64,000 nt of DNA from a virus (taxonomy: Duplodnaviria; Heunggongvirae; Uroviricota; Caudoviricetes), in the IMG/VR virus record IMGVR_UViG_3300021430_000416, positions 18,435 to 82,434 of that record. One strand, written 5' to 3'. The position numbers were made by a program, and so were the translations under genes. Every line of letters starts with the position of its first letter. Position 1 is the stretch's first letter. Below, in pieces: positions 48,659 to 63,679 of the stretch. Under the pieces are notes generated by a model. It saw only the letters and a list, made by a program, of their open reading frames with translations. It was not told the DNA's origin and did no database searches.

Positions 48659-48967
48659 CTTCTGTTCTCTAAGTTATTAAGACGGTCATGCGTCTTTCTG
48701 TTTATTCTTGCTTGGACTGATATGGTTACAAACTGCACCATTATAATTCCTAATAATATTACGTACATCATATATGATAAATATTCTTGCCAAACAATAT
48801 TGACCATCTCCTGTCCCGTCGATTCCCGCCAAACAAATTCCGGATTCGTCCTCCTCCCCGGGTCATCTGTCATACGCCAAACAAATTCCGGATTCTGGGA
48901 TACAGGTGAAAAAAAAATCCCATGATTTGTGGTCACGGGATTTGTTGCTAGAATCCAGAGGTCCGAA

Positions 48968-49240
48968 CTACGCTTTGTTCAAAAGACTCTTACGGAACTC
49001 GAACGCTTTCTTCTTAGATGAGAAGTTAGCTGAATGTTTAGTCCCGTTAACACTAGCACGTACACGGTATGAATAACCGTCGAAATAGATGTGATGAGAT
49101 ACCGGTTCGTATGTACTTACCGACTCTTTCTTAACAGTCAACTTCGCTGTTGCTTTCTTAGTACTTCCACCTTTCTTGGTGGTCGTAGGTTTAGCTGCAG
49201 GTTTGCTAGCTGGTTTCTTTGTGGTTTTCTTAGTTGCCAT
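48968..49240 (-). CDS. lysine-rich small DNA-binding-like protein (AP2-like C-terminus?)
   Basis: N-terminal KKTTKKPASKPAAKPTTTKKGGSTKK tail. C-terminal YRVRASVNGTKHSANFSSKKKAFEFRK is reminiscent of an AP2/integrase-type DNA-binding fold. Confidence 0.5.
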   Translation of the reverse strand: MATKKTTKKPASKPAAKPTTTKKGGSTKKATAKLTVKKESVSTYEPVSHHIYFDGYSYRVRASVNGTKHSANFSSKKKAFEFRKSLLNKA

Positions 49241-49488
49241 AATTAAATTTATTTGATATTCAAAATATAACCAAAAATTTCCACATTACCAAATCACCGA
49301 TGCAAAATATGTAAAAGAACTGGCCAAACAATATTCAGGGTCACCTGTCCCGTCGATTCGATTCTTGCCAAACAAATTCCAGAGTCCCTGTCTTCAGGAT
49401 GGGTCATCGACCGTGTATACCTGATAGAAGAGATGTTCAGGAGACCGAATCCCCTGAACACCACATGTGTTATTACTGTACCGAAGAG

Positions 49489-49932
49489 TTAGTAAGAGTT
49501 GAAGACATCCAAGTCACGAATACCCATTTCTTTCCTACTCTCCATTGCAACCTCCTGTAGGAATTCAACTAGAGTCTCACCCATGTCAGTTCCGTAGAAG
49601 ACCAATGTAGTTTTATATTGTTCTGAAGTACTCACCGAGATGATAGATAATCCGAAGAGTCTCATCCAAAGAGGTTCGTCCATCATTACGGATTTAATCC
49701 TGAAGTAGTTTACGGTCCTGCGGGAAACGTCAAATACTCCCTTCACCTCCACGACGTAGTCATCATAGAACTCGTACCTCCAACACATAATCTCCAAGTA
49801 CTTGTATCCGTATACTAAGAGACCACCGATTCCGGCGTATGGATGTACAAAGAATAATCCTACAGCTAAGATTAGCCAACCAATATTCAACCACTGAGAT
49901 GGTGAAGCTACGTGTTCAGGTTTCGTACTCAT
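49489..49932 (-). CDS. membrane protein with a bacterial PH (bPH_2/DUF304-like) domain
   Basis: Two TM helices, then YEFYDDYVVEVKGVFDVSRRTVNYFRIKSV. Confidence 0.5.
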   Translation of the reverse strand: MSTKPEHVASPSQWLNIGWLILAVGLFFVHPYAGIGGLLVYGYKYLEIMCWRYEFYDDYVVEVKGVFDVSRRTVNYFRIKSVMMDEPLWMRLFGLSIISVSTSEQYKTTLVFYGTDMGETLVEFLQEVAMESRKEMGIRDLDVFNSY

Positions 49933-49939
49933 ATCAATA

Positions 49940-50230
49940 TTATTTAGTTACCACATTACTATTGGAGATTTGTTTTATTGATGCACTTGTGGATGTCATC
50001 ACTGGTATTTGATAGAACATCACCGAGTCCACTAAGTGTGGTTTGGTTTCGTTACCAAATAAACCTTTGGTCCACATCCTGTGAATCATGTTTCCTGTTT
50101 CATTGTTCAAGAAGTAAACGTGTTTACCATTTACTGTTCTTTTTGCCACAGGTGAAACTTGGACACAAGTCTGGGTGCTTGAACACCCAGACATAATACC
50201 TACTACTAAGATTAAAATATATTTTTTCAT
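49940..50230 (-). CDS. lipoprotein
   Basis: Signal peptide IMSGCSST. Confidence 0.5.
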   Translation of the reverse strand: MKKYILILVVGIMSGCSSTQTCVQVSPVAKRTVNGKHVYFLNNETGNMIHRMWTKGLFGNETKPHLVDSVMFYQIPVMTSTSASIKQISNSNVVTK

Positions 50231-50232
50231 TG

Positions 50233-50805
50233 TTACAAATTTACGGGGTCTTTATAAAATTCAAAATCAATTGTTTCTTCTTCCTCCACACCGAAGTCGA
50301 TACAGAATCCAACCACGGTATCATCATCACTTGTAAGAACGAACAGTTGGTAAGAACCATCTCCGAATCCTGAAGAAGAAACCATACCCTCGTCATACGA
50401 ACCCCATCGTAATACACCAAGAGTTCGTTGACACATTTTCATGTACCATCCATCACCTTCTTCTTCTCTACCGTAATAAAAGTCCGCTTCACCTTTTTCA
50501 ATCGGGTGATTGTCGTTCCTGTATGACGCCATTGAGAAGATACCCGCTTGACCCGAGTCAACACCGACAGTTCCCCCGTGTTCAACCCATTCCAAGGATA
50601 ATTCATCTTCCTTACCCACATATGCTTCGTGGATACACATCAACATGGATGTACGATTACCCCAATCACCACAGTCGTGTTTCTTGACGAATGGTTCGTA
50701 ATAACCCGGTAAAACATTGTTGACAATAACTTGGCACCATGTCGGGATGGTGTAACAAGGGTCAGATACTACGACCTCTGTTCCTAATTTGATTTTTTGT
50801 GACAT
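50233..50805 (-). CDS. hypothetical protein
   Basis: 190 aa ORF. Confidence 0.55.
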   Translation of the reverse strand: MSQKIKLGTEVVVSDPCYTIPTWCQVIVNNVLPGYYEPFVKKHDCGDWGNRTSMLMCIHEAYVGKEDELSLEWVEHGGTVGVDSGQAGIFSMASYRNDNHPIEKGEADFYYGREEEGDGWYMKMCQRTLGVLRWGSYDEGMVSSSGFGDGSYQLFVLTSDDDTVVGFCIDFGVEEEETIDFEFYKDPVNL

Positions 50806-50899
50806 ATACTTGTTCGATTTAAAGTTGTTTCGAAATTAGTGAATCCGCTGGAATATTCCAAATAATATTATGATATAATTGCCAAACAATATCCGGAGT

Positions 50900-51385
50900 C
50901 TACTTCCTGAAGGTCGACTTGAAGACCCTGATGTTTTCCTCTATCTCAGCATCCATGGCCTGAATCAACTTGGTCTTAGCTCGTTCCATGAATTCTTCGT
51001 TGCCAAACAATATTTCAAGGTTACCATCTGCCTCGGGATGAAACTCAATCTTCTTGACAATTACACGTACATCTTTAGACTTCTTATCCTTCCTATAGAA
51101 TGGAGTCCTTGCGTAGATGTATTCACGTACCTGAGATAACTTGATATCCTCTAGGTTCTCACGTATACGCATTTGCATTATGATTTCTTCAAGAGCTGCA
51201 AGTTGTTCGAAAGTACTTTTGTTTTTGGTAACCATTCCTTTATAAACGTTTACCATGTCAGTTAACTCCTTAGAGTTGACCACTTCACTACCTTGGTTAA
51301 GGAATTGGTCATAACCACTTACCTCACTCGGTGACCCAACGATGTCGATGAATACACCTTCAATTGTTTTATTTACTCGTCCCAT
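50900..51385 (-). CDS. hypothetical protein
   Basis: 161 aa ORF. Confidence 0.5.
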   Translation of the reverse strand: MGRVNKTIEGVFIDIVGSPSEVSGYDQFLNQGSEVVNSKELTDMVNVYKGMVTKNKSTFEQLAALEEIIMQMRIRENLEDIKLSQVREYIYARTPFYRKDKKSKDVRVIVKKIEFHPEADGNLEILFGNEEFMERAKTKLIQAMDAEIEENIRVFKSTFRK

Positions 51386-51386
51386 T

Positions 51387-51647
51387 TTAAAATTGATTCA
51401 AAAAATTCTTTATGCCAAACAAAATTGAGGGCTTGGCTTCCTCCTGAGTCTTCTTCTCTCTCTCGAATTCCTGTTTGTACAATGCTGCGTCCTCTGCTTT
51501 AATTCTCTCCTCGATGGTTTTAGCGTGAAATTTACCCGACACTACAACATTGAATTCTTTTTTCAATGAGTCTACCCACTCGTGATATGAAAGTTTCACA
51601 TCAGGATACACAGTGGTTCTTGGTTTAGGTTCTTGAGTCTGTATCAT
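51387..51647 (-). CDS. hypothetical protein
   Basis: 86 aa ORF, translationally coupled to the upstream gene. A GCCAAACAA box lies inside its 3' end. Confidence 0.45.
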   Translation of the reverse strand: MIQTQEPKPRTTVYPDVKLSYHEWVDSLKKEFNVVVSGKFHAKTIEERIKAEDAALYKQEFEREKKTQEEAKPSILFGIKNFLNQF

Positions 51648-51652
51648 ATGTC

Positions 51653-52258
51653 TTATTTTTCAGATAAACTTGTTTCGTACATTTGTTTGATTTCGTTATA
51701 GTCTTCCTCATCAACAAAGTTAAACTTCTCAATGAAATCATCAAGTGATATATCATCATCAATTGCGTATTGAATATCACTTTCGACCTCATACCAAAAC
51801 GCCTCGTTGTCCAAATGATATTTCCCCTCAAGGAAACTATAATCCTCCTCGACCAAATTTTCATTCTCTATTGTGGTTCTACCACAGAAATCACAACCAG
51901 GTTCCTCATATTGAAGTTCCACATTCACACCATACTTCTCGTGTAACCTCACACCGAAACCGATTGGTGGCGACCACGCTGTTTGGGGACTCATAGTGAT
52001 GGTGTTCTCACTGAACTCGAATTGACATTCATTGTATGACACATCCCACTTCGTTCCAAACCATCCGATATTGGCGTTATACCATCCACCTTTGTTATAT
52101 TCTTCTTCACCAATTTCAGGTTCACGACCGATTAGGGTTTCAAAGACATTTGCGTTATCTCTTTCTTCCTGTGGGATACCTTCCAACACACGAGTTAGTA
52201 ACCCGATGGTTTTAGGGTCACCAGTTATTGTTATATAATTTGAACACCAGTTTGGCAT
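51653..52258 (-). CDS. hypothetical protein (MPNWCSNYITI N-terminus, DUF1281/Api92-like?)
   Basis: 201 aa ORF. The N-terminal MPNWCxN motif recurs in a plasmid/phage protein family. Confidence 0.55.
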   Translation of the reverse strand: MPNWCSNYITITGDPKTIGLLTRVLEGIPQEERDNANVFETLIGREPEIGEEEYNKGGWYNANIGWFGTKWDVSYNECQFEFSENTITMSPQTAWSPPIGFGVRLHEKYGVNVELQYEEPGCDFCGRTTIENENLVEEDYSFLEGKYHLDNEAFWYEVESDIQYAIDDDISLDDFIEKFNFVDEEDYNEIKQMYETSLSEK

Positions 52259-52280
52259 AATCTTGTTATTTAATTTATTT

Positions 52281-52359
52281 GTAGTCGGGATAGGACTCGA
52301 ACCTATATTAAGATGCCCTTATGGACTTACACTTTTCCTATTCCATTAGAAGACCCGAC
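52281..52359 (-). tRNA. tRNA-like gene embedded between the promoter and the start codon of the downstream gene; anticodon arm not canonical by eye
   Basis: On the minus strand: GGTCGGG acceptor, U8, D-arm TTCT/AGGA with the AATGGAAT loop, T-arm ATAGG-TTCGAGT-CCTAT, acceptor 3' CCCGACT, discriminator A, no CCA. It lies immediately after a TATCTTTG -7 box. Confidence 0.45.
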
Positions 52360-52421
52360 CATTTGTGATACAAAGATAAAACAGGGATACCATTTTACCA
52401 AACAATACCCCTGTTTTTTTA

Positions 52422-52967
52422 TTACCAAGAGGATTGGTAGTAGAAGTCACCACCTTTTTCTTCCAACAGTGGTTCGAGTTGGTTAATGGTATTGTCCAAA
52501 TCTTTTATATACCATTGGTCATACTCTGTTCCACCAAAGAAAAAACCTGGTTGTGTCGGGAGTAGTTCTTCCGCAAGTGATGTGTCCTCAAATACTTCCA
52601 CATCGTCATACATCTTCTCACCATTCTGCCAACCAACTTCCATCCGAACCTTCTTCTTCGGAGAATTTTCCAAACTCTCCTTAACTTTCTTACAGGTGTC
52701 CACCAACTCTCGAAGTTGTTCCCTGTCCACATAATACTCTCGACAGTTGTCTTCACCACCCTGAACATTCTCAACAAACCATTGGTGAATGTGGTTTGCT
52801 TTACGCCAATACGCCACACTTTCTTCGATTGAGGAAATACGTTCCTTCTTAATGTGGGGAACTTCTTGACCGTTCTTCTTCACGGTTATTTCGTGAAGTT
52901 CTTCGGGTGACATATGTTCCCAATTCTTAACATATGTCTTTTTGTGTAGATACATATCTAATCCCAT
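52422..52967 (-). CDS. hypothetical protein of the MGLDMYL N-terminal family
   Basis: Start moved to the internal MGLDMYLHKK. The annotated 5' extension runs through the promoter/repeat region. Confidence 0.5.
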   Translation of the reverse strand: MGLDMYLHKKTYVKNWEHMSPEELHEITVKKNGQEVPHIKKERISSIEESVAYWRKANHIHQWFVENVQGGEDNCREYYVDREQLRELVDTCKKVKESLENSPKKKVRMEVGWQNGEKMYDDVEVFEDTSLAEELLPTQPGFFFGGTEYDQWYIKDLDNTINQLEPLLEEKGGDFYYQSSW

Positions 52968-53055
52968 AATAGTATTTTGTTTTTTTGTTGATACAAAGAT
53001 ATAACTGTTTTTTCTTTTTACAAAATTTATTTTGCCAAACAAATTGTGGGTCTTC

Positions 53056-53394
53056 TTACCCCTGTAGGATTTTGAAGTAGTCAACTCCTTTTGCAATTAG
53101 GTCTTCTGCACGTTTCAATCGTTTTGCATCATTCCAAATATTATATGAAGACCTTTCAGGTTCAACACCCAAGTCCAACATTGAAAAAAGATGTTCCCAT
53201 TTACCACCAACGTAAAGTTCACCCGTAAATCTTTCGACTGCATTGTAACTTTCGTAGGTCATTTTTAATTTAACACCTCGAACAACATCAGATTGTTGAA
53301 CGATGCACACATCGTGTGATTTTTCTTTCTTGTGGTGTTCACTTCTGTAGATTTGTTTTACCTTTACCATATCTTGATTGATTTGTTGATACAA
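53056..53394 (-). CDS. hypothetical protein
   Basis: 112 aa. Canonical -33/-7 promoter plus box upstream. Confidence 0.5.
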   Translation of the reverse strand: MYQQINQDMVKVKQIYRSEHHKKEKSHDVCIVQQSDVVRGVKLKMTYESYNAVERFTGELYVGGKWEHLFSMLDLGVEPERSSYNIWNDAKRLKRAEDLIAKGVDYFKILQG

Positions 53395-53477
53395 AGATAT
53401 AACCTTTATTTCTTTTTACCAAATTTATTTTACCAAACAAATTCCACAGTTCGTCACCTCCGTCGGGTTCTGAGTAA

Positions 53478-53512
53478 AAAAGAAAACCCCCACCATTTCT
53501 GATGAGGGTTTA
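53478..53512 (-). terminator. rho-independent terminator (conserved AAACCCTCA..CAGAAATGgtGGGGGTTTT family)
   Basis: Hairpin plus T-run on the minus strand after gene 53534..54043. Similar hairpins recur at 58838, 60226 and 62551. Confidence 0.5.
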
Positions 53513-53533
53513 ACCAATTAAACAATATATGAA

Positions 53534-54043
53534 CTAATCAAAAACAATACGTCCTTGTTTTTCTGTAACATCGTTGTCAACAACAACAATCTTACCAATG
53601 TCACCACTATCTTCACCTTGCCATGTAACCTCACCATTGAGTATTACATCCCACTTTGAGAAGAAGTGTTTGATGAGGTATTCCAACCATTCTGTATAAG
53701 AATAGAATTTCTCACCACCATCCCACTCCAATTCAGTTCCTTCCTTATTGATAGTCCATTGACACCATAAACCTGGTTGTCCTTGTGGGGGTTGGTTGTA
53801 ATCTATGATAGTTATATCACTAAATGATTCACGTCCACCAACAAAGTACCCACCATCCACACCATATGTTTCCTCTTTAGGTAAAAAAGGGTTTCCATTC
53901 TCACCATTTTCAAATTCCATAAGTTTTGAAACATCTCGTTTCATTCTACGAGTTTCATTGAACTCCCTAATAAAGTTTCCTTCTTGCGTTGTAAGTGGTC
54001 GGTTAAACTTAAACGAACCACTAAAGTCTGTCGTATATCCCAT
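53534..54043 (-). CDS. hypothetical protein
   Basis: 169 aa ORF. Confidence 0.5.
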   Translation of the reverse strand: MGYTTDFSGSFKFNRPLTTQEGNFIREFNETRRMKRDVSKLMEFENGENGNPFLPKEETYGVDGGYFVGGRESFSDITIIDYNQPPQGQPGLWCQWTINKEGTELEWDGGEKFYSYTEWLEYLIKHFFSKWDVILNGEVTWQGEDSGDIGKIVVVDNDVTEKQGRIVFD

Positions 54044-54151
54044 ATTCTTATTGATTAATTGTACTACAAAGATAAAACATTTATTTAATTATACAAAATT
54101 TTTATTGCCAAACAAAATCCCCCCGTCGGTTCTCCTTCAGGGGGATTAGTT

Positions 54152-54754
54152 TTAATTTTCTTTCAAGTCGAAAACAATCTCGGTATAGTCCATCATACCG
54201 TGTAATACTTTCGGACTATCTTTCTCCACAGAGATAACATCACGAGCCCATGACCCAACAATACCTTTTTCATCACCTCTGAAATCTCCTCCACCTCTAC
54301 CGTTACCCTCACAAGTTAATAATGGTAACGGGTGAATCTTTGTACCTTCCCATCCCACAATCTCGGGGATATTGTTTTTATCCACGAACTGTTTTTTGGT
54401 GTGGTTCACCACAAACTGATACTCTTCTGTATCTGTTACCTTTGGATTAACTTTGTTTTCGTCATTACAAAGTGAATACAGATTTGCATCATACTCTTTA
54501 CCCTCATCAATAATTTTTAAACCCGGTTCTTCATCCGCATAATCACCAGCCCACACTACACGACTTTTGTAATGTCCACCTGTACGTGATAAAAGTTTCT
54601 CGAATGCCGAAACGAAGTTGTTCCCTTGATAGGAATGTTCCATTAATTTAAGACCGTTGTCGTATTCGTGTGAATATACCCATGCCTTAACTGTTTCGTG
54701 TTGTCCTTCTTCTGGTTTACTACCTAGAATGATTGGTTTGAAATACTGTCCCAT
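54152..54754 (-). CDS. hypothetical protein
   Basis: 200 aa ORF. Confidence 0.55.
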   Translation of the reverse strand: MGQYFKPIILGSKPEEGQHETVKAWVYSHEYDNGLKLMEHSYQGNNFVSAFEKLLSRTGGHYKSRVVWAGDYADEEPGLKIIDEGKEYDANLYSLCNDENKVNPKVTDTEEYQFVVNHTKKQFVDKNNIPEIVGWEGTKIHPLPLLTCEGNGRGGGDFRGDEKGIVGSWARDVISVEKDSPKVLHGMMDYTEIVFDLKEN

Positions 54755-54825
54755 AATATTGTTTGATTAAAATGTTACACAAAAATAAAACAGTTCAGGA
54801 TATAATCCAAATACTTTTTTATTTA

Positions 54826-55030
54826 TTTTGCCAAACAAAAGTGGGATACCAGACTCACATCCAGATTCCAGCTAGATTCACAGCGCGGTCCTGCTCCTGA
54901 TATTGTTTGGCGGAAACACTACCATTGATAATCAACAACTTAAAGAATGCCAAACAAATTCCGGAGCTACAGCTGAGCTGCGTGCAACCAGCAAGCAAAC
55001 TATATAGCAATAAAAAACCCCCTAATCAAG
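54826..55030. repeat. intergenic repeat element (family copy A), ~200 nt, containing inverted GCCAAACAA boxes
   Basis: Shares GTGGGATACC..TCACATCCAGATTC..CCAGC..TTGTTTGGCGG..GCCAAACAAATTCC..CAGCAAGCAAACTA blocks with 58633..58862 and 63466..63640. Confidence 0.55.
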
Positions 55031-55792
55031 GGGGTCAATTACAAACCTACTATTTTTATCGGGTCGTTTTCGGGTCGTCTTATACTTCAACCCTACAATT
55101 ATACCGCCCTTATCTTTGTACCTCATATCGTAAAGGTCACCATCGATAACTTCTCTACCCCAAAATGATTCGGGTAAATGTTTTTTAAATACCACTGCGA
55201 CTCTAACTCCACTATTCAACATATTAAGACAATCGGTAAAGTTCTCACCACTAAAAGAAAAGGTAAGGTCATAGTTGGTATACTTGTTAATAAGTTCCAC
55301 CCTCTTTGGTACTTTCGAATAATCATAAAACATTACAGTCGGAAACAATTGTAAGATGTTTTTTTTCTCACCGTTCACATCCATATAAAATGATTCGGGA
55401 GAGATGTCAGATGTATTGTTTAATCGAACACTGAAAGTGTATCCCAATTTCTCAGCTTTCTTTTTTGCTGCGGTTATTTCAGATACCATCCATTTCATAA
55501 AATACTCACGGTGTTCAAAAAACAATTTTGTTTTTTTGATTCTACCTTTGGTAATCATGTCATCCTTCATGTTCATTCGATTCATACCTGATTCGTTTAA
55601 ACACAATGCGGTACACTCTTGTGTTCTCATTGGGCAAACCTCATAACCACTCAACTTGGCGGGTGCAAGGTAAAGACTGTAGGTCAACTCATCATATTTG
55701 AGTGACTTAACGTGTTTGGTTGTCATTGATACCGAACCCAAATAATTGATGCCGGTTTCAATCTTGGCTTGTGTTCTACTTTTAAATTCCAT
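55022..55792 (-). CDS. hypothetical protein
   Basis: 256 aa. TATCTTTG -7 box 22 nt upstream of the ATG. Confidence 0.55.
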   Translation of the reverse strand: MEFKSRTQAKIETGINYLGSVSMTTKHVKSLKYDELTYSLYLAPAKLSGYEVCPMRTQECTALCLNESGMNRMNMKDDMITKGRIKKTKLFFEHREYFMKWMVSEITAAKKKAEKLGYTFSVRLNNTSDISPESFYMDVNGEKKNILQLFPTVMFYDYSKVPKRVELINKYTNYDLTFSFSGENFTDCLNMLNSGVRVAVVFKKHLPESFWGREVIDGDLYDMRYKDKGGIIVGLKYKTTRKRPDKNSRFVIDPLD

Positions 55793-56018: not shown

Positions 56019-56765
56019 TTAGAAACGAAGATTAAGTTTTTCGTCATTTCGTCTACGATAGTTGTAGATTTCCTCAATCATTTCGGTGTATAATTCTACC
56101 GAACCACAAAGGTGAATCATACCCGGACGAAGTTGAACTTTGTGTAGGAACTCCTCGAATTTAAATTCGGGTTTCTTCGACATAATCTTAATCAACGCTC
56201 TAACGAAGATTGATTTATTGTAACCTTTCTCGAAGTAAGGTTTAAGTTGTTGAATGTTCTTAGCCCACTCCTTACCTTTCTCAATGTTTTTTACTTGGAA
56301 GTTTCCACTTTCAAATACATCACGATGAACCGGATTTGAATTGTTCTGTAAAAACATCAATGCCTCGGTTACACGGAAGTCGGGGAACTCATTGATGAAG
56401 TTATCTAACTTCATGTAGTGTGGGTTGTTTTCTTTTACGTAACCATGAATGTGGTCAGCTAAAGACCAATTCTTTTGGTTTTGGTTTAGTCCACGAATTG
56501 CATCAAAACCAGCTTTACGTTCAATGGTGTAAGTAATAGGTACTCCTGCATTGATAGCCGCTTTTACTCGGTGTTGTCCGTCAATGATTTCACCTTTCTC
56601 ATTGATAACAACATAAGAACCCGGAATCCAACCAGTGTTTTTCATTTTGTCGGTCAACTTGGTGATGTGGGTTTTGTTAAGAACACGATTGTCTTCACGG
56701 AATTTAAACATTCCGTAGTTTTTGGTTTGGAACACTTGGTTCACTTTTTTTGAGTTCTGAATCAT
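56019..56765 (-). CDS. ParB/DUF262-like nuclease-domain protein (start at the internal MIQNSKK)
   Basis: GEIIDGQHRVKAAINAG is the DGQ(Q/H)R ParB/Srx-superfamily motif. The N-terminal extension of the track ORF overlaps the promoter. Confidence 0.5.
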   Translation of the reverse strand: MIQNSKKVNQVFQTKNYGMFKFREDNRVLNKTHITKLTDKMKNTGWIPGSYVVINEKGEIIDGQHRVKAAINAGVPITYTIERKAGFDAIRGLNQNQKNWSLADHIHGYVKENNPHYMKLDNFINEFPDFRVTEALMFLQNNSNPVHRDVFESGNFQVKNIEKGKEWAKNIQQLKPYFEKGYNKSIFVRALIKIMSKKPEFKFEEFLHKVQLRPGMIHLCGSVELYTEMIEEIYNYRRRNDEKLNLRF

Positions 56766-57061
56766 ACGAAATTGATTTTTTATTTGTTGTACAAAGATAT
56801 AATTGTTTTTTCTTTTTTCCAAATACTATTTTATTTTTTTTCAAAAATAACTTTGACTTTGTTTTGAGAACCAAATGTAATAAGAATATCAATAAAATCC
56901 AAGAAATATTTTATCTTTTTTGCCAAACAAAATCCCACCTGAAATGACCCCGGCGTAAACAGAAACGGGGTTTTTAAACAAAAAAATGGGGGTAAAACTA
57001 CCCCCAATGTTAAACCAAACACAAATTACAACTATGAAATGTAACCGTATTTAAAAGTTAA

Positions 57062-57250
57062 TCAAACCAATTTATATTGTAAACCCCTTTTGATGTTTTT
57101 TTCCGAAATCTTTGTGTAGAGGTTTTTAAACTTCGGGTGTTCAACAAAGTAATCATTACCACTCTTGAAGTAATTTAACTCTGTATTACTTGGGAACACA
57201 ATGTCAAACTTCTTTGACTTTACTTTTCTTTTTAAAACGATGCAGTCCAT
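57062..57250 (-). CDS. hypothetical small protein
   Basis: 62 aa ORF. Confidence 0.35.
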   Translation of the reverse strand: MDCIVLKRKVKSKKFDIVFPSNTELNYFKSGNDYFVEHPKFKNLYTKISEKNIKRGLQYKLV

Positions 57251-57253
57251 ATC

Positions 57254-57679
57254 TTATCGTATTACGTTACCATTAATAAATTCACCATCACTTTTGAAAA
57301 GTTCTTCTGTCGGTTCACCACCATTATCCTCAACACTCATAACCTCTTTGGTGTCCATAACTTCATCCCACGGTAATTCTGAAATCTCATTCCCTTTTGA
57401 AAACTCTATCGCTTTAAGCTTTGCATCTTCTTCATCGACTGCATCAATCTCAAAGTTAGTTCTCATCCAAGTAGTTACCTTTTGGTCAAGGTAGAAGCTG
57501 AAGGTTGTGGTTGGAAGGTCATACAACATTCTCTCCACGATTAAGTTCCAAGTGCTCTCGGGTTCATCGTTCTCATAACTGATGTAGTTCTCCAAAACCC
57601 AGTTAATCTCTTTCTCGGTTAATTGTTTGTTGATAGAGTTACCTACACTGATAACATCTTCTCTTGAAATTCTTGACAT
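57254..57679 (-). CDS. hypothetical acidic protein (start at MSRISRED)
   Basis: The track ORF's N-terminal 18 aa are read through the promoter region. Confidence 0.5.
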   Translation of the reverse strand: MSRISREDVISVGNSINKQLTEKEINWVLENYISYENDEPESTWNLIVERMLYDLPTTTFSFYLDQKVTTWMRTNFEIDAVDEEDAKLKAIEFSKGNEISELPWDEVMDTKEVMSVEDNGGEPTEELFKSDGEFINGNVIR

Positions 57680-57748
57680 AATATTATTGATTAGTTGTGA
57701 TACAAAAGTATAATGTTTTTTTCTTTTTACCAAATGTTTGTTGCCAAA

Positions 57749-58066
57749 CTAATTCCAGTCTTCGTCCCTGCAACTGTCCATCGTTTTGTCCATCCCAACG
57801 TCATACGCTTCCAACTCGGTGTAGATGTCATGTAACAAATCATCGTTAAGGTCTTCATACTCCACAGTGAATGTATCGACCTCTTGTTCATGTACATAAG
57901 TTACCACCTCAACATAATCTCGGTAAAACCTTTCAATGGTTGAATAATGGTCTTTACTTATCTGGTTGTAAATCGGTGATGATTCACACTCCATATCTCG
58001 TGTGCTGATTGAACCCCACTTTTCGATAATGGTTTTAATTTCTCTGATGGTTGCAGTTCTTTTCAT
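57749..58066 (-). CDS. hypothetical protein
   Basis: 105 aa ORF. Confidence 0.45.
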   Translation of the reverse strand: MKRTATIREIKTIIEKWGSISTRDMECESSPIYNQISKDHYSTIERFYRDYVEVVTYVHEQEVDTFTVEYEDLNDDLLHDIYTELEAYDVGMDKTMDSCRDEDWN

Positions 58067-58070
58067 ATTG

Positions 58071-58346
58071 TTATAATGTTATAAATTCACAAAAATCTTC
58101 GAGGTCAAGTAAATCAATACGACCGTGTTTTGCTGAGGAATAATAACCCTGTTGTTTGTAGTTATCCTTCCACTTGTTGAAAGCCTCCATAGCCTTCTTT
58201 CTACTTGTATAGGTTACAACATCCCTTTCAATGGTGAAACCATCGGGTGATAATACCTGATACATTTTTCTTTTAGGAGTAAATGATGCAATTGCATTGT
58301 CGCAATTGTGTTTACCGCCATCCATTCCATCTAAATAAGTTGCCAT
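58071..58346 (-). CDS. hypothetical protein
   Basis: 91 aa ORF. Confidence 0.45.
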   Translation of the reverse strand: MATYLDGMDGGKHNCDNAIASFTPKRKMYQVLSPDGFTIERDVVTYTSRKKAMEAFNKWKDNYKQQGYYSSAKHGRIDLLDLEDFCEFITL

Positions 58347-58347
58347 A

Positions 58348-58572
58348 TTATTTTTTAATTTTATTCCAAAAATGATTAACTACTTCGGGTATATACTTTT
58401 TATAGCCTGGTTGATTATCCATACACCACTTCTTTAATTCCTCTTTTGTGGTAAAAGGTTTCTGCCACGAATTACCACTCATTATCTGATTAAACAAGGG
58501 TTCAAGGTCATTAATAAAACTACCTACTGTCCAACCTTCCCAAATGTGTTTGTTTAAATTGATTGATGCCAT
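58348..58572 (-). CDS. hypothetical protein (start at MASINLNK)
   Basis: The 5' extension (...RFIFVQQIK...) is promoter read-through. Confidence 0.4.
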   Translation of the reverse strand: MASINLNKHIWEGWTVGSFINDLEPLFNQIMSGNSWQKPFTTKEELKKWCMDNQPGYKKYIPEVVNHFWNKIKK

Positions 58573-58632
58573 AATTAATTTGATTTGTTGAACAAAGATA
58601 AATCTATTTTCGATATAATCCAAATACTTTTT

Positions 58633-58862
58633 TATTTATTTTGCCAAACAAAAGTGGGATACCGGGGTCACATCCAGATTCACCAGCAAAATCCCCAGCA
58701 GCAACCAGCAGGCAAGCCAGGTGATTTTGTTTGGCAGAAATCGTAGTATTGAAAATCAATGAGTTAAGTCCGCCAAACAAATTCTACAGTTCCAGCTGTT
58801 GCTGCTGGATAACAGCAAACTAGCAAGCAAGAAAAAACCCCCGACTTTCATCGAGGGTTTCC
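58633..58862. repeat. intergenic repeat element (family copy B)
   Basis: See 54826..55030. Contains inverted TTTGTTTGGCAG / CCGCCAAACAA boxes and ends in a terminator hairpin. Confidence 0.55.
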
Positions 58863-58911
58863 GACACCTGTCGCCAATTAATTGGTATTAGCAGGACTAC
58901 CAATCAATGTC

Positions 58912-59760
58912 TTACACCAACTCTACAAGTTGTTTGAAGATACTTCTCTCACGATTTCCGTAAGTACCGAACATTTTGTTCTCGGTATTATCTTCTTTAC
59001 TCAATGAGTGGGTTGTATATTTTGTTACACCACTGAACAACCCCCAAAGGTTATCACCTTTCTCTTTCAACTCACCGTTAAGGTCTACATAGAAACGAGT
59101 TAAACGATTTCGGGTAACTGATGATACACCATCTTCATCGTTCAAGTCAATTTCTCTTGCTATGTTGAACAATAATTTGGTAGCCCAATCTTCGGTTTGT
59201 TTTGAGAAACGAGTTTCAGCAAGTTTCTTAATGTCTTGGAACATTTCTTGTTCTTCTTGTAGTACACCTTCCAATCCACGACAAATGTCGTCAATCTTCA
59301 TTTGCATGTTCTTTGTGTGACGAACCTTTGTGTTCAAGTTGCGGAACGCTGCGAAGAACGTATTCATACAACTGATAGTAATGTTACTCGGTCCGAATGC
59401 CAAACTAGTTGAACCATCGAATGAGTTCACACCGGTAATGTAACCTTCGATACGGTCATCACCCAACTTCAAATCATTTGATTTAAGTTGTAGGAACACT
59501 TTCTCACCCTCACCAAAGTAACCACCTTTGTGAATAGGTAAACCAACTTGTTGAGATACCTTATCAAGTAACTCAATCATCTGATGGTTTTGGAATGGTT
59601 GATAACCCTCACCATGTACTGATAACACCGAATTGTTATCATCACGAATGATTGCTTTTGTTTTCGGAACAATGATACCACTTTCGGTAGTAACTGTTTC
59701 TTCACGGACTGTCCAATTCAAACCTGTTTGATTAAGGACTTGGTTAATTCTTTCTGACAT
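58912..59760 (-). CDS. DUF932-family protein (phage/plasmid-associated)
   Basis: LNWTVREE...AIIRDDNNSVLSVHGEGYQPFQNHQ...KVRHTKNM match the DUF932 N-terminal and central RHT blocks. Confidence 0.55.
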   Translation of the reverse strand: MSERINQVLNQTGLNWTVREETVTTESGIIVPKTKAIIRDDNNSVLSVHGEGYQPFQNHQMIELLDKVSQQVGLPIHKGGYFGEGEKVFLQLKSNDLKLGDDRIEGYITGVNSFDGSTSLAFGPSNITISCMNTFFAAFRNLNTKVRHTKNMQMKIDDICRGLEGVLQEEQEMFQDIKKLAETRFSKQTEDWATKLLFNIAREIDLNDEDGVSSVTRNRLTRFYVDLNGELKEKGDNLWGLFSGVTKYTTHSLSKEDNTENKMFGTYGNRERSIFKQLVELV

Positions 59761-59837
59761 TTGATTATGATTTAATTGTTGAACAAAGATAAATCTATTT
59801 TGGGTATAAACCTAATTTTTTTTTACTTTTTTTTGAA

Positions 59838-60035
59838 TTAACTTGCCAAAGGAATTTCCCTCCACTCTAGATTCCCACAGTAATCTTCGATGTACTCTTT
59901 TGCATCGGATAACCCGATAACCGAATAATCATGGTCTCCATTCTCTACCACGATTTTTTTAACAAAATCAATGAAATCATTTTCATTACCAGTGAAGATT
60001 GTTTTATCTTCTACGTTGTTGTAAACTGTTACCAT
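59838..60035 (-). CDS. hypothetical small protein (start at MVTVYNN)
   Basis: The 5' extension is promoter read-through. Confidence 0.4.
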   Translation of the reverse strand: MVTVYNNVEDKTIFTGNENDFIDFVKKIVVENGDHDYSVIGLSDAKEYIEDYCGNLEWREIPLAS

Positions 60036-60326
60036 AATTGTATTATTTGATTTAACGAGGACAAAGATAAATCTATTTTCGGTATAAACCAAATATTTTT
60101 TTATTTTTTTTTTTTAGGTGAGTCTAAATCCTGTCGTCGAGCTTGGGATATTGTTTGGCGTAATACAGTGCCAAACAAAATTCAGGCACCCGGGTCATCA
60201 GACTCACCTTTAGGTAATACAAATAAAAAACCCCCACATTTCTGTGAGGGTTTAACCAATTAACATTATGAACCACAACCAAATCTATTCAATCATATGA
60301 ACAAATTCAGATATTTTAAATACTTT

Positions 60327-60662
60327 TTAGTAGTTTTTTTCGTAGTTATGTTCACGAAAACCTCTTTTGTGGAATGAGTTCCTCTTTGGTCGTTCCGTGT
60401 AGTGATTGAATGATGTTTCAATCATTGTGTCGACTGACGGTGTTTCCCAATCCATGTTGCAAGAACCGTTCATCATCAACCACTGGATTTCAAATATCTC
60501 TTTCACACTTTCTTCCACGTTGACGTAAGTTCCATCCATGTACTCAATCTTGGTAACAACTTGGTTGTTCCGTTTATCCAATACGGGATAGATGTTCTTC
60601 ACATTTTGAAGATTAACCAATGTGGGAGTTCCCTTTCCTTGATACGTAAGTCTAATTAACAT
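60327..60662 (-). CDS. hypothetical protein
   Basis: 111 aa ORF. Confidence 0.45.
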   Translation of the reverse strand: MLIRLTYQGKGTPTLVNLQNVKNIYPVLDKRNNQVVTKIEYMDGTYVNVEESVKEIFEIQWLMMNGSCNMDWETPSVDTMIETSFNHYTERPKRNSFHKRGFREHNYEKNY

Positions 60663-60755
60663 TTTAATTTAGATTTAAAATTTGAACAAATATACAACTA
60701 AAAATTTATGATATTCTAATTTTGTTGCCAAACAATTTTTACTGTCCGGTCTTCT

Positions 60756-60995
60756 TCAGACATTCCCTGAGAAGACGAGATTGTTTTTTTCGGGTAATAC
60801 ATTATCGGGATGGTCGATAATCTCGTACTTGTCTTCACCGATTATAAGTCCGATGGTTCTACCGTTATCCCAATTCACATTGATTACACCTCCACCAACG
60901 TGTCTAATAGTTCCCATCTGTCCTTTCTCGATGGGTTGAGGGTCATTTGACATTGTTTCTGTCATACGAATTCTTTTACCTACGATGTTGTTCAT
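60756..60995 (-). CDS. hypothetical protein
   Basis: 79 aa ORF. Confidence 0.45.
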   Translation of the reverse strand: MNNIVGKRIRMTETMSNDPQPIEKGQMGTIRHVGGGVINVNWDNGRTIGLIIGEDKYEIIDHPDNVLPEKNNLVFSGNV

Positions 60996-61120
60996 ATCTA
61001 TTGTTCTTTTTTGTTATACAAATATACAACTTATTTCCGTTTACACAAGAAAAATCTTTAGGAAAGATGCCAAACAATTTTTGGAGGACCGCCGGTCTTC
61101 AGACTCAAGATACGGAAATA

Positions 61121-61150
61121 AAAAAACCCCGATGTTACTCGGGGTCTTTC
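61121..61150 (-). terminator. rho-independent terminator
   Basis: CCCCGAgtaacaTCGGGG hairpin plus T-run on the minus strand after gene 61152..61484. Confidence 0.5.
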
Positions 61151-61151
61151 T

Positions 61152-61484
61152 TTATTCGTTGATGTCTGTGTAGACTTCATCTTTAGTCTTAAACAGACTA
61201 TTCGGTCTACGTCTGTCACCTTTTTTGAGTTCATAGTAACCCTCACCATGTACCCCATCAGGGAAGTAACGATAGGTGGTGTCACCATACAACACATTCG
61301 GTGTGTCTTTCACGAAATCCTCCATAGAAATTTTGGTGTCACCCATTGATACTCGGTAACTACCTTTCTCAATTTTTTCCATGATGAAATCTTTCTTTCC
61401 GTTCTTTTCCTCGAAATGACGGATTGCTCTGTACGCCGCACTTGACGACTTGTACATCTTTGGGAATTTAACTTCTGTACTCAT
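61152..61484 (-). CDS. hypothetical protein
   Basis: 110 aa ORF. Confidence 0.5.
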   Translation of the reverse strand: MSTEVKFPKMYKSSSAAYRAIRHFEEKNGKKDFIMEKIEKGSYRVSMGDTKISMEDFVKDTPNVLYGDTTYRYFPDGVHGEGYYELKKGDRRRPNSLFKTKDEVYTDINE

Positions 61485-61578
61485 ACGATATAATTTAATT
61501 GTTGAACAAAGGTAATGCAGGTTTCCGATATAACCAAATAATTTTTTTATTTTTTTAGAATTATTATGCCAATCAAAT

Positions 61579-62361
61579 TTAGGATACCTTCTGTCCCGTG
61601 GTCATCTTCTGTGATAATCTCTTGATACCTCCTTTGGTGTAAGGTTCGATGAAGATAAACTTAAACAACTTTCTACCTTTACCATAAGGTTGTAAACGGA
61701 AGTGTCCTCTTACTGAAAATTCATCTAAACGAATAATAGTGGTGTTCCAATTCGTATTAACTAAAATAAACTTACTACGAGTGTCATTCTTAACCTTACC
61801 TTGTTTGTTAGTTCCAAACGATGCTCCGCCAATCAAAATGTCAAGGGTCACGTCGGTGAGCTCCAAGTAAGTCACAACAACTAAAAACTTCGAGTAAAAT
61901 TCCTCAATCATTCTCTCCAAGTTCATATCTTGTCCATCATCCGATTTCTTATTGTCGGTTGTAACTTTACCCGTAACCAAATTAACCTCGAAGAAATAAA
62001 GATAAATCATATCATCATTGGGTTTCGTGTAGTGAAACGATACCAATAACATCTCATCAGTCTTTCTGTATTTGATACAAGTCATCTCATCCAACTGAAT
62101 AACATCTTTTCGGTTGGGTAAGGTTCTCAATACATCTATTCTTAATTGTTTCGGTACGATATAGTTCTCCAAGTTCTGAATAGACTTCTTAGAAAATACG
62201 AGTTTCCTAACATCAGTTTCTTTTAATAAACTAATTTTATTTAAGTACACATCTTCTCTCGGTGAATCGAACACACAACATTTTGTCAAAAAATCTACGT
62301 GATGTTTGATGTAGTGTTCTTTCTCTACTACGTTGATAAGACTATCTTCTTTAATTCTCAT
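61579..62361 (-). CDS. hypothetical protein
   Basis: 260 aa ORF. Confidence 0.55.
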   Translation of the reverse strand: MRIKEDSLINVVEKEHYIKHHVDFLTKCCVFDSPREDVYLNKISLLKETDVRKLVFSKKSIQNLENYIVPKQLRIDVLRTLPNRKDVIQLDEMTCIKYRKTDEMLLVSFHYTKPNDDMIYLYFFEVNLVTGKVTTDNKKSDDGQDMNLERMIEEFYSKFLVVVTYLELTDVTLDILIGGASFGTNKQGKVKNDTRSKFILVNTNWNTTIIRLDEFSVRGHFRLQPYGKGRKLFKFIFIEPYTKGGIKRLSQKMTTGQKVS

Positions 62362-62604
62362 AACTTAATTGATTTAACGAGTACAAAAATAAATCTATTT
62401 TCCGTATAATCCAAATTTTTTTTTACTTTTTTTCCTGAAGAATCCGGGGACAGCGCAGACTCCACATATTGTTTGGCGTACTACAACCGATATGTAATAC
62501 GATGCCAAACAAAATTCAGACGCCCGGGTCATCAGACTCACCTTCGGGTAATACAAAAAAAAATCCCCGACTTTCATCGAGGATTTCCTAACCAAAAAAC
62601 AAAC

Positions 62605-63006
62605 CTATTCAGAATCTTGTAACTCACCAGTAAGGTACATGTCGTAAGTTTTAACTTCATTAACCAAAAGTTCGGTAACCTTTTCAATAAGTTTTTTGTC
62701 GATACGTTTAACTCCGTATTCCTCCCTAACTTTTTTCTTCGATACGAAAATGAAACCAACTTGTCCACTATCACAACGACAACTAAAACCTGTCGTGTTC
62801 ATAGTAATTCCCGAGTGGTCGTAAAGGTAAAGTGGTAAGATTACACAAGCATCTTCATTCTTGATAATTGCACTTTCCATTTCATCCCAACCACTATAAT
62901 CTCTGTGGTCGTATTCGTGTTTATCCCCCAAATCATAACGATTGTGGAAACACACCATTGTTCCTAAATTGTCCCAACTACGTGGGTTGTCGAAGTCTTG
63001 ATACAT
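62605..63006 (-). CDS. hypothetical protein (start at MYQDFDNPRSW)
   Basis: The 5' extension is promoter read-through. Contains PLYLYDHSG and CRCDSGQVGF. Confidence 0.5.
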   Translation of the reverse strand: MYQDFDNPRSWDNLGTMVCFHNRYDLGDKHEYDHRDYSGWDEMESAIIKNEDACVILPLYLYDHSGITMNTTGFSCRCDSGQVGFIFVSKKKVREEYGVKRIDKKLIEKVTELLVNEVKTYDMYLTGELQDSE

Positions 63007-63082
63007 AACTTTATTTTTAATTGGTTTATACAAATATAATACTAATAACCGAATACACCAAATCTTTTTTGCCAAACAATTT

Positions 63083-63421
63083 CTACTGTCCGGTCATCTC
63101 CTCATCCTTCTTGACCATCTCATTCATAATTGAGGGTACTAAGTCTTTCAATAGTGAAATCTTTTTCTTCTCCAATTCAATTAGTTCACATAGGTTATCC
63201 ACAACCTTTTTTACTTTCTCATATTCATCGGAAGTTAAAAGAAATACCATACGAGGTTTATTATTATACTCATACCCATTCAATGGTTTAGTAAACTCAT
63301 GTAACCCAAAGTTCTTTCCCTCTTCTCTGTTGAAGTAATAAGGGGTAAGACCCATAGATTTGAAACGTACCAAATCCATACTCTTGATGTTGCCATCCAT
63401 TAAACGTCTTGACTTTTCCAT
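63083..63421 (-). CDS. hypothetical protein
   Basis: 112 aa ORF. The true start may be an internal Met, because the -7 box lies only about 5 nt upstream. Confidence 0.45.
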   Translation of the reverse strand: MEKSRRLMDGNIKSMDLVRFKSMGLTPYYFNREEGKNFGLHEFTKPLNGYEYNNKPRMVFLLTSDEYEKVKKVVDNLCELIELEKKKISLLKDLVPSIMNEMVKKDEEMTGQ

Positions 63422-63465
63422 GATGCAAATATAAACCTATTTTTGTTATAGACAAATTCTTTTTT

Positions 63466-63640
63466 GCCAAACAAATGTGGGATACTGCGGTCCACCGGTT
63501 TCCACCAGCAAAATCACCAGAATTTCCCAGCAGGTCCCAGCCGAGAATTTGTTTGGCGGACTAATACGTTAGCCAAACAAAAAGTTGGATTCCAGCTACA
63601 GCCGGCGCAATCTTCAAGCAAAAAAAAAAGGATAACATTT
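63466..63640. repeat. intergenic repeat element (family copy C)
   Basis: See 54826..55030. Carries the inverted pair TTTGTTTGGCGGactaatacgttaGCCAAACAAA. Confidence 0.55.
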
Positions 63641-63679
63641 CTGTTACCCTCTCTTCATCACAACCATGTGTTAAACCAA

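Follow-up and report, generated by a model that had tools for sequence, protein, structure and literature searches.

The 64,000-nucleotide window analysed here, a stretch of the IMG/VR virus record IMGVR_UViG_3300021430_000416, holds two convergent gene blocks: a plus-strand block A that extends to ~47.6 kb and a minus-strand block B from there on. Block B carries many copies of a short box, GCCAAACAA/TTGTTTGGC, and the analysis supports this box being a cis-regulatory site tied to promoters, because it is non-coding, biased in orientation and phase-locked to the -7 promoter element. The box is probably the site of a phage-specified DNA-binding factor, of which one molecule would occupy each asymmetric box, and which would coordinate the host RNA polymerase promoters of this single, presumably early block. 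The statistics of the sites, the geometry of the promoters, the restriction to one promoter class and a lineage-specific concerted variation are established below, and they point to binding by a protein and to a contact with the polymerase, whose effect could be of either sign.

Exact copies of the box number 31 in the window, whereas dinucleotide shuffles average 0.55 and never exceed 4, and 29 of the 31 lie within 48789-63580; with its variants, the box reaches a total of ~33 copies in block B. This abundance is due neither to chance nor to composition, and the multi-copy conserved box that the original prediction had placed in 48780-63600 is real. The exact copies are found within a few nucleotides of the positions listed for them there, while the variants had been placed up to 11 nt off (TTGTTTGGT at 52397 and 53432, given as 52395 and 53443; TAGTTTGGC at 57743, given as 57736), and a copy within coding sequence, at 51002, had been missed. 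As for the two divergent forms that had been proposed, the one at 61570 corresponds to TTGATTGGC at 61568-61576, while the one at 59846 falls outside the family pattern. By information content, the core spans ~13 nt, (G/A)(A/T)T-TTGTTTGGC-(A/G) on the gene strand, with G3, G7, G8 and C/A9 as the invariant G/C positions of the box. The site is asymmetric, not dyad-symmetric, and it occurs as single, direct and convergent copies with gaps of 4-54 nt, which argues against the dimeric regulator originally envisaged.

Although ~77% of the block is coding, 28 of the 31 family copies fall outside coding sequence (P = 3e-15), and 25 of the 31 are oriented with TTGTTTGGC on the gene strand (25:6). A lack of positional preference and an equal frequency in coding sequence had been named beforehand as the marks of a purely compositional repeat; what was found within the block is this strong non-coding bias and an exact spacing to the -7 element. 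Two exact 9-mers in block A (32520-32528, plus strand; 43457-43465, minus strand) apparently lie within open reading frames (ORFs), lack the usual flanks and are probably chance or coding coincidences; all real boxes are confined to block B. A full-text literature search with the 9-mer returned only primers and unrelated sequences.

The intergenic regions of block B typically present, on the minus strand, a stop codon, an intrinsic terminator, a GC-rich arm of 30-40 nt, the box, an A-rich spacer, a -33 TTTG, a -7 TAnnTTTG and the start codon. In an alternative layout, a loop separates the box from a second, inverted box that has an arm of its own, and the A-rich tract and the promoter come after this pair. 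Terminator-like sites in the block number 30 against 10.1 expected, each strong one standing 5' of a box cluster.

The -33 TTTG/-7 TAnnTTTG pair is the promoter consensus of Bacteroidota (PMC2483708). A scan with the pattern TTTG-N17-22-TAnnTTTG yielded 16 full minus-strand promoters in block B and seven plus-strand ones in block A. Among the ~19 recognisable promoters of block B, 14 hold a forward box at a fixed distance, three an upstream inverted pair and two (50243 and 59791) no box; thus, the predicted location upstream of nearly every minus-strand promoter applies to 17 of ~19, whereas none of the seven host-type promoters of block A carries a box. The box marks one promoter class, that of block B, a role for which it had also been proposed.

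Spacing statistics were obtained from the window pooled with its closer syntenic relatives, which were retrieved by means of a 90-residue protein encoded in block B. The distance of single forward boxes from the -33 TTTG is 8-10, 18-19 or 27-30 nt, with a periodicity of 10 bp (R = 0.83, p < 1e-4), so that the range of 8 to 18 nt given in the original prediction is correct, although the distances are not continuous but quantised, at 8/9, 18/19 and 29 nt. The gap between the box and the -33 element offsets the length of the -33/-7 spacer (8 with 20, 9 with 19), and consequently the distance from the end of the box to the TA of the -7 motif is constant, at exactly 32 bp (eight cases), 42 bp (eight) or 53 bp (two). 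The 32 and 42 peaks remain when no -33 element is required (15 of 39 pairs, against ~5% expected), and the boxes at 60727 and 61069 keep a canonical distance at promoters without a proper -33 element. The promoters concerned belong to at least four or five families, whose sequences between box and promoter have nothing in common, so that paralogy does not explain this phasing. With the -7 motif taken as about -12 to -5, the boxes are centred at ~-50, -60 and -71; none of them overlaps a core promoter element, and the centres lie a whole helical turn apart upstream of the core promoter, as at class I (CRP-type) sites, which makes the predicted class-I-activator-like position a fair description. 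The spacing is a face-of-helix, double-stranded-DNA geometry, and it ties the box to RNA polymerase on the promoter.

Class I CRP sites are centred at -61.5, -71.5 and -82.5, and the late-promoter elements of P2 Ogr and P4 Delta at ~-55; in these systems, a small activator contacts the alpha subunit of the polymerase. The boxes resemble them in lying upstream of the core, on one helix face and in whole-turn steps, with a site at every promoter of the class. Contrary to the asymmetric box, however, those sites are dyad-symmetric and bound by dimers (or by a zinc-finger protein on a TGT-N12-ACA dyad), and they accompany weak -35 elements, whereas most promoters here have a consensus -33 of the Bacteroidota sigma-A type.

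A location upstream of the core could also be expected of an UP-like or other upstream promoter element contacted by the alpha C-terminal domain of the host polymerase, or by a host factor, with no phage protein involved. The box of the 32-nt class and its A-rich spacer (GGAATTTGTTTGGCAAAATAAA), at ~-59 to -38, resemble the E. coli UP consensus (nnAAAWWTWTTTTnnAAAAnnn); UP elements displaced by whole turns, and thus kept on the same face of the helix, still work; and immediate-early genes must fire ahead of any phage protein. However, an UP element is A/T-rich, lies between -40 and -60 and has no conserved G/C, whereas the invariant G3, G7, G8 and C/A9 are not UP-like and only the 32-nt class is suitably positioned. 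Moreover, close relatives with the same -33/-7 grammar use different variants of the box genome-wide, among them TAGTCTGGA, which loses the TTTG and much of the A/T run; the host-type promoters of block A work without the box; and the distal convergent pairs do not suit an UP element. A reader supplied by the host is, on this evidence, quite unlikely.

That the box serves a sigma factor or an RNA polymerase of the phage itself, either as a -35-like sequence or as part of a non-host promoter, is highly improbable. The box does contain TTTG, which at 52397 also acts as a -33 element, a sigma factor of the extracytoplasmic function (ECF) type is encoded in the neighbouring block of one relative (L058), and the GTATTAC found after the box presumably recalls phiKZ-type early promoters. 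Nevertheless, the distance to the -7 motif takes three discrete values instead of one, and the promoters downstream of the boxes are complete and of the host type. Boxes are also found in either orientation and in arrays, TTTG is missing from the TAGTCTGGA variant, and the window ORFs that were scanned yielded no gene for a sigma factor or a polymerase. The complete -33/-7 elements downstream and the three spacings one turn apart likewise speak against the alternative sigma/anti-sigma element considered in the original prediction. A decoy -33 element was also considered and rejected, in view of variants such as TAGTCTGGA without TTTG. The T4 MotA box, to which the present box had been likened, takes the place of the -35 element, with its centre at -30, and depends on AsiA. 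Both are 9-bp boxes that define a promoter class (a temporal class in T4) in what are, or here appear to be, large lytic phages, but the box described here lies at -50 or further and ends at least 8 nt upstream of an intact -33 TTTG, so that the analogy fails on position.

The six inverted pairs that had been predicted in the window are all real, with gaps of 9, 10, 14, 26, 36 and 37 nt. Across the clade of related phages, 49 pairs are convergent, with their GGC ends facing each other over gaps of 4-54 nt, and 4 are divergent; direct repeats number 25 in the forward orientation (gaps of 30-48 nt) and 1 in the reverse. Forward boxes outnumber reverse ones by 176 to 78, and reverse copies almost always partner a forward one; the phasing of distal reverse boxes is weak. 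Convergent pairs might act as hairpins in RNA or single-stranded DNA, with a stem bound by a double-stranded RNA- or hairpin-binding protein or by RNase III, and with a function in processing, stability, priming or as a hairpin promoter. Distant relatives hold mostly convergent pairs, whose loop lengths (4-54 nt) are irrelevant to a hairpin and awkward for two DNA-bound protomers; in addition, 10 of 36 homologues of the 90-residue protein give weak dsrm matches (best E = 0.039), and double-stranded RNA-binding domains (dsRBDs) appear among its fold matches. On the other hand, about half of the copies are single or direct repeats, unable to pair, and the boxes lie between an intrinsic terminator and a promoter, in the least-transcribed DNA. 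The stems lack compensatory variation, their sequence being fixed within a genome, and so exact a distance from the -7 motif is a property of double-stranded DNA. Rfam covariance models, that of the hammerhead included, gave no match at gathering score and only weak terminator-like matches at E <= 5. A role as a hairpin is thus considered very unlikely. Two specific structures were rejected separately: the hammerhead ribozyme, whose CUGAnGA word is present in 24% of arms against a background of 8%, as the helix II/I geometry is unfit and Rfam gives no match, and, by inspection, integron attC-like sites, as the core-like halves are in the opposite order, single copies exist and there is no integrase.

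The arms have a mean of 44% GC against a background of 35%, are not conserved palindromes and share enriched words (GGGACA 19-fold, CTGAAG 11-fold, CCGGA 12-fold) in no fixed register; some of them are the 3' coding ends of the upstream genes. The TCCGGA/TCCAGA flank of the original prediction survives as a tendency, CCGGA being present in 13% of arms, and the arms were rejected as a strict second motif, since their words are loose and their register is not conserved. Near-identical cassettes of arm, box and promoter are duplicated in the block (54780-54860 and 58593-58673; 60179-60220 and 62513-62554), and the unrelated genes 60756..60995 and 63083..63421 share an arm-encoded end, ...TGQ*, all of which hints at recombination at these elements.

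Such cassettes could therefore be selfish or recombinogenic intergenic repeats, similar to the T4 PeSL promoter/stem-loop cassettes or to repetitive extragenic palindromic (REP) sequences and bacterial interspersed mosaic elements (BIMEs), that spread by recombination or gene conversion and shuffle genes without regulating them. The near-identity over ~70 nt (54830 against 58643; the arms of 60170 and 62504), the shared arm words, the coding ends, the inverted pairs in intergenic DNA and a concerted variation such as gene conversion would produce are all in keeping with this. However, between relatives it is the 9-13 nt box that is invariant, while arms and loops have wholly diverged; the exact 32, 42 or 53 bp to the -7 motif are held through unrelated spacers; and the orientation grammar is strict. 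Besides, the boxes are restricted to one block (42 kb of a related 310-kb contig), and none of the features of REP/BIME repeats or miniature inverted-repeat transposable elements was found: the arms are non-palindromic, terminal inverted repeats and target duplications are absent, and no transposase or RAYT-like gene was detected among the ~60 proteins scanned. Mobile cassettes are consequently an unlikely explanation of the boxes.

A second motif, GTAT(G/T)AC, often in the form (C/T)GTATGACA, accompanies the box in the window (e.g., 62548-62554, 60214-60220 and 55909-55915) and in all related loci. GTATTAC/GTAATAC occurs 16 times in block B against 2.3 expected, and once in block A against 7.7 expected; the motif is enriched 3-10-fold in every lineage and biased to the gene strand. 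When close to a box, it lies 0-8 nt past the GGC end. Copies are concentrated immediately downstream of the gene of the 90-residue protein, and many copies are in coding sequence. In contrast to the box, this motif is invariant among lineages. A further word, GACGGGAC(A/C), recurs 12-25 nt 5' of boxes in the arrays around the same gene in most lineages (48805-48815 and 49343-49353 in the window; also L046, L057, L058, L061 and L063), and may be a third conserved element of these arrays.

Relatives of the window were found at two distances. An IMG/VR scan for the palindromic form of the box retrieved a 310-kb contig, with all its 13 palindromes within 227.8-270.0 kb (42 kb), and several further contigs with many boxes. 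These relatives share block B genes at 67-76% nucleotide identity; their boxes do not vary, nor does the A/T flank, whereas arms and loops are unrelated. The closer relatives hold boxes at homologous intergenic positions, with a different box sequence throughout each genome: TTGTTTGGC is the form of the window, the 310-kb contig, C55, L007 and L014, TAGTTTGGC that of L045, L046, L057 and L058, TAGTTTTGC that of L061 (L063 being mixed), TAGTCTGGA that of L059 and TTGTCTGGA that of L060. The copy inside the gene at 50900..51385 (51002 in the window) is TTGTCTGGA in L059, which changes ILFGN to ILSGN, a single amino-acid replacement, and it retains TTG where TAG would be a stop codon. Because this in-gene copy follows the lineage variant despite the amino-acid change, the constraint acts on the nucleic-acid sequence itself, in a lineage-specific manner, and such lineage-specific variants argue against a conserved host reader. 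Gene conversion may add to the homogeneity within genomes; it leaves unexplained the conservation of the box alone and its phase-lock to promoters.

The box can be placed with a known kind of element, the multi-copy regulator box that defines a phage promoter class. The closest parallel in arrangement is offered by the stoperators of mycobacteriophage L5 and the Cluster A phages, where an asymmetric site is read by a monomeric immunity repressor of the gp71 type (PMC9283540) and related lineages have changed both the motif of the site and the repressor that reads it (PMC6550527, PMC9283540). Like them, the box is an asymmetric site of ~13 bp, present in more than 20-30 copies in short intergenic spaces, with an orientation tied to the direction of transcription, a lineage-specific motif and, presumably, reading by a monomer; the ~33 copies fall within 16 kb, and the bias in orientation (25:6) is maintained in the clade (176:78). 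Unlike stoperators, the boxes lie between a terminator and the next promoter rather than inside transcription units, and therefore a stop of elongation is unlikely; many of them hold a fixed phase upstream of promoters, they are often grouped into convergent pairs and arrays, and the phage looks like a large lytic one rather than a temperate siphovirus. No immunity repressor with helix-turn-helix and Stoperator domains was found among the ~60 window proteins scanned against Pfam and PHROGs.

The operators of P1 C1 are also asymmetric and found at many promoters genome-wide, singly or as inverted pairs, but they are 17 bp long, overlap core promoters and lack upstream helical phasing, in a temperate phage. 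The small p4 protein of phi29 binds upstream of promoters, contacts the alpha C-terminal domain and activates or represses depending on promoter strength, and KorB from RK2 is a ParB-family regulator with operators at variable distances from many promoters. Similarly, block B encodes a ParB-like protein, a match at the PHROG level; however, the sites of p4 and KorB are inverted repeats bound by dimers.

In the mechanism proposed here, one molecule of the factor would read each box, as the site is asymmetric, occurs singly and forms pairs with gaps that vary from 4 to 54 nt, and the box would coordinate the host-polymerase (-33 TTTG/-7 TAnnTTTG) promoters of one block of small genes. From a proximal box, at ~-50, -60 or -71 on one face of the helix, the factor is expected to touch RNA polymerase, with the alpha C-terminal domain as the probable point of contact, in the manner of class I or P2-Ogr-type promoters; the upstream convergent pairs and direct-repeat arrays could provide extra occupancy or action at a distance. 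Recruitment or activation is slightly favoured over a Cro-, p4- or stoperator-like shut-off, because of the geometry, the lack of overlap with core elements and the two boxes at canonical distances from promoters without a -33. The near-consensus promoters, the arrays around the gene of the candidate reader itself and the basic, histone-H1-like tail of its product are points in favour of shut-off.

That candidate is the 90-residue protein, to which the role of reader is assigned tentatively. Its gene is flanked in the window by three downstream and two upstream boxes, in agreement with the three to five copies that had been predicted on both sides of 48968..49240; in every lineage with the box, it has two to three direct-repeat boxes upstream and two to three downstream, and its homologues adjoin boxes in the 310-kb contig and L007 too. 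In the structural model, a three-stranded antiparallel sheet packs on a C-terminal helix (E51-53, E58-64, E67-73, H76-89), with a predicted local distance difference test (pLDDT) score of 80-91. This domain superposes on 2gcc (1.8 A over 42 residues), 1bb8 (2.0 A over 43) and 6sy0 (1.8 A over 41), and thus resembles AP2/ERF and Tn916 integrase N-terminal DNA-binding domains, with scores that are not significant at such a size and with dsRBDs matching about equally. The family comprises ~100 clusters of tiny stand-alone proteins; one distant member is a fusion with NUMOD4 and HNH_3, the sort of context in which DNA-binding modules typically occur. The ParB-like protein, kept across the clade at 41-61% identity and without a match in Pfam or among Protein Data Bank (PDB) sequences, is a second candidate, and a rather doubtful one, and the reader may also be encoded beyond the window. 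A rule by which the box variant would co-vary with residues of the 90-residue protein or with ParB-like similarity was sought, and none came out clean.

Several observations weigh against the assignment of the box to a promoter-contacting factor, and against the 90-residue protein as its reader. In the distant relatives (the 310-kb contig, C55, L007 and L014), the boxes are mostly convergent pairs located 50-137 nt from the -7 motif and phased weakly (R = 0.56, p = 0.003), so the tight geometry between box and promoter is a feature of one subclade, and freely spaced convergent pairs are more usual in elements that form hairpins than in sites bound by proteins. Gene conversion among repeats could be an alternative source of the concerted variation. 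Most box promoters carry a near-consensus -33/-7 and A-tract upstream regions, and should therefore need no activator. As for the candidates, the beta-sheet core of the 90-residue protein is invariant while the box changes, no residue of this protein tracks the box variant across lineages, and neither does the similarity of the ParB-like protein across the clade. Near the most divergent homologue of the 90-residue protein (L062), no box can be recognised, and just the invariant second motif, CGTATGACA/GTATTAC, is present.

A more specific proposal, possible though doubtful, is that of a new global phage regulator, consisting of a stand-alone AP2/Arm-like domain with an H1-like tail, perhaps together with the ParB-like protein, which would sit as a monomer on lineage-specific boxes and switch ~30 promoters on or off from -50, -60, -71 or distal convergent pairs. 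If so, box and reader would co-diversify between sister phages as a specificity code (e.g., avoiding cross-regulation in co-infections), in parallel to the evolution of immunity specificity in mycobacteriophages, in a very different and probably lytic system. For promoters of the -33/-7 type, no earlier grammar of upstream activators would have been described, and the importance of the box would be higher if such a tiny AP2-like protein proved to be a global class-I-type regulator. The control of -33/-7 promoters in Bacteroidota is poorly charted, and a search of the searchable literature found no description of upstream factor sites with a defined geometry in phages of this phylum. This clade of large freshwater phages represents a natural experiment, with dozens of promoters whose box is placed at exact one-turn steps, single-base switches of the box between sister lineages and a short list of candidates, and it opens the way to direct tests of how a Bacteroidota phage coordinates an entire gene block of early type. 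In addition, the box is a practical marker for promoters and for this gene block in the annotation of metagenomic contigs.

Since its IMG/VR relatives are contigs of up to 335 kb and its helicase is most similar to those of large Bacteroides thetaiotaomicron phages (38%), followed by Chryseobacterium and Flavobacterium phages (33-39% amino-acid identity overall), the source of the window is, as judged from these similarities, a large uncultivated Bacteroidota phage. Searches against GenBank phages gave no match for the block (megablast) or the 90-residue protein (tblastn) and only distant matches for the DUF932 protein (tblastn), and no cultured close relative was found. The sign of the GC skew flips at the junction between both blocks, at ~47.6 kb. 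The ~30 genes of block B are mostly orphans in Pfam and PHROG scans, with few family matches (GP88, DUF932, DUF4241, bPH_2, an Api92-like domain and the ParB-like protein). Block A, on the other hand, encodes auxiliary functions and several homing endonucleases, with families such as NAMPT, PRPP synthetase, NADAR, Thg1, RNA ligase, helicase, nucleoside deoxyribosyltransferase, and GIY-YIG and LAGLIDADG endonucleases. The coordinates of all these features are collected in Table 1.

Table 1. Boxes and other features of the window, with positions numbered from its first nucleotide.
Feature	Position	Strand	Remarks
Box, third of 3 direct repeats downstream of 90-residue protein gene	48789..48797	-	reads TTGTTTGGC on gene strand
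Box, second of 3 direct repeats	48828..48836	-	39 nt start-to-start from next
Box, first of 3 direct repeats	48876..48884	-	followed by gTATGACA (second motif); after terminator 48915-48943
Box	49323..49331	-	53 nt upstream of -7-like TATATTTT, promoter of 90-residue protein gene
Box, direct repeat	49367..49375	-	44 nt upstream of 49323 box
Box	50881..50889	-	42 nt from -7-like TAATTTCG, promoter of gene 50233..50805; arm in 3' end of gene 50900..51385
Box within coding sequence	51002..51010	-	read I-L-F-G-N in gene 50900..51385; tracks lineage variant in relatives
Box in 3' end of gene 51387..51647 (read L-F-G)	51414..51422	-	28 nt upstream of next ATG at 51385; kept in L045 and L046
Doubtful member TTGTTTGGT	52397..52405	-	in terminator hairpin loop; its TTTG is the -33 of the promoter of the tRNA-like element
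Box	53034..53042	-	32 nt from -7 motif 52994-53001
Variant box TTGTTTGGT	53432..53440	-	32 nt from -7 motif 53392-53399
Box	54107..54115	-	32 nt from -7 motif 54067-54074; T-rich part also after GC hairpin
Box	54830..54838	-	42 nt from -7 motif 54780-54787; cassette near-identical to that of 58643
Reverse box, partner of 54949	54903..54911	+	
Forward box, convergent pair	54949..54957	-	gap 37 nt
Reverse box, convergent pair	55900..55908	+	77 nt from -7 motif 55815-55822
Forward box, convergent pair	55918..55926	-	gap 9 nt, loop acGTATTAC
Box	56922..56930	-	42 nt from -7 motif 56872-56879
Variant box TAGTTTGGC, dominant form of sister lineages	57743..57751	-	32 nt from -7 motif 57703-57710
Box	58643..58651	-	42 nt from -7 motif 58593-58600
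Reverse box, partner of 58772	58727..58735	+	
Forward box, convergent pair	58772..58780	-	gap 36 nt
Reverse box, convergent pair	60151..60159	+	81 nt from -7 motif 60062-60069
Forward box, convergent pair	60170..60178	-	gap 10 nt, loop actGTATTAC
Box	60727..60735	-	32 nt from -7 motif 60687-60694; promoter without -33 TTTG; arm in 3' end of gene 60756..60995
Box	61069..61077	-	42 nt from -7 motif 61019-61026; -33 reduced to TTG
Degenerate box TTGATTGGC	61568..61576	-	53 nt from -7 motif 61507-61514
Reverse box, convergent pair	62469..62477	+	77 nt from -7 motif 62384-62391
Forward box, convergent pair	62504..62512	-	gap 26 nt
Box	63071..63079	-	32 nt from -7 motif 63031-63038; arm in 3' end of gene 63083..63421
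Box	63466..63474	-	32 nt from -7 motif 63426-63433
Reverse box, partner of 63572	63549..63557	+	
Forward box, convergent pair	63572..63580	-	gap 14 nt
Block B	47640..64000	-	~30 small genes, each with its own promoter; continues past window end; from ORF map
90-residue protein, candidate reader	48968..49240	-	disordered Lys/Pro/Ala/Thr-rich N-terminal half; C-terminal beta-beta-beta-alpha domain
ParB-like protein with DGQHR motif, second candidate reader	56019..56822	-	phrog_12305, E = 4e-32
tRNA-like element with its own promoter	52283-52361	-	8-bp acceptor stem, D-like arm, perfect T-arm (TTCGAGT loop)
Promoters of block A class	12024, 30747, 36646; also 6841, 27174, 32070	+	
tRNA genes of block A, two	33625-33716 and 37807-37884	+	ARAGORN calls only tRNA-Ser(CGA); Rfam calls only the second
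Homing-endonuclease-like genes, four	958-1725, 14348-15175, 42425-43906, 44433-46505	+	three GIY-YIG, one LAGLIDADG
Auxiliary-metabolism cluster	1703-2542, 3860-4891, 9445-10947, 13435-14358, 15329-15808, 16903-17373	+	

Two of the relatives encode proteins with no counterpart seen in the window: L058 holds the ECF-type sigma factor mentioned above at 14564-15085 (minus strand of the locus), in a neighbouring block, and L063 a protein with a DnaA C-terminal domain at 2671-3024, directly upstream of the gene of the 90-residue protein. The tRNA-like element of block B has an aberrant anticodon region and is called by neither ARAGORN nor Rfam.

The host-type promoters of block A form a class of their own, which is free of the box and consists of a long A-run, TTTGG, a palindromic spacer (GAATATTCTAGAATAT) and then TACCTTTG. 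This palindromic spacer, common to the promoters of the block (TTTGGAATATTCTAGAATATCAT-TACCTTTG), may be the operator of a different regulator. The auxiliary-metabolism cluster of the same block, which includes a Thg1-like tRNA-His guanylyltransferase, an RNA ligase, NAMPT, PRPP synthetase, NADAR and a nucleoside 2-deoxyribosyltransferase, suggests NAD salvage and tRNA repair. Among the homing endonucleases, the two large GIY-YIG proteins are paralogues, with kin in Vibrio and Rhizobium phages.

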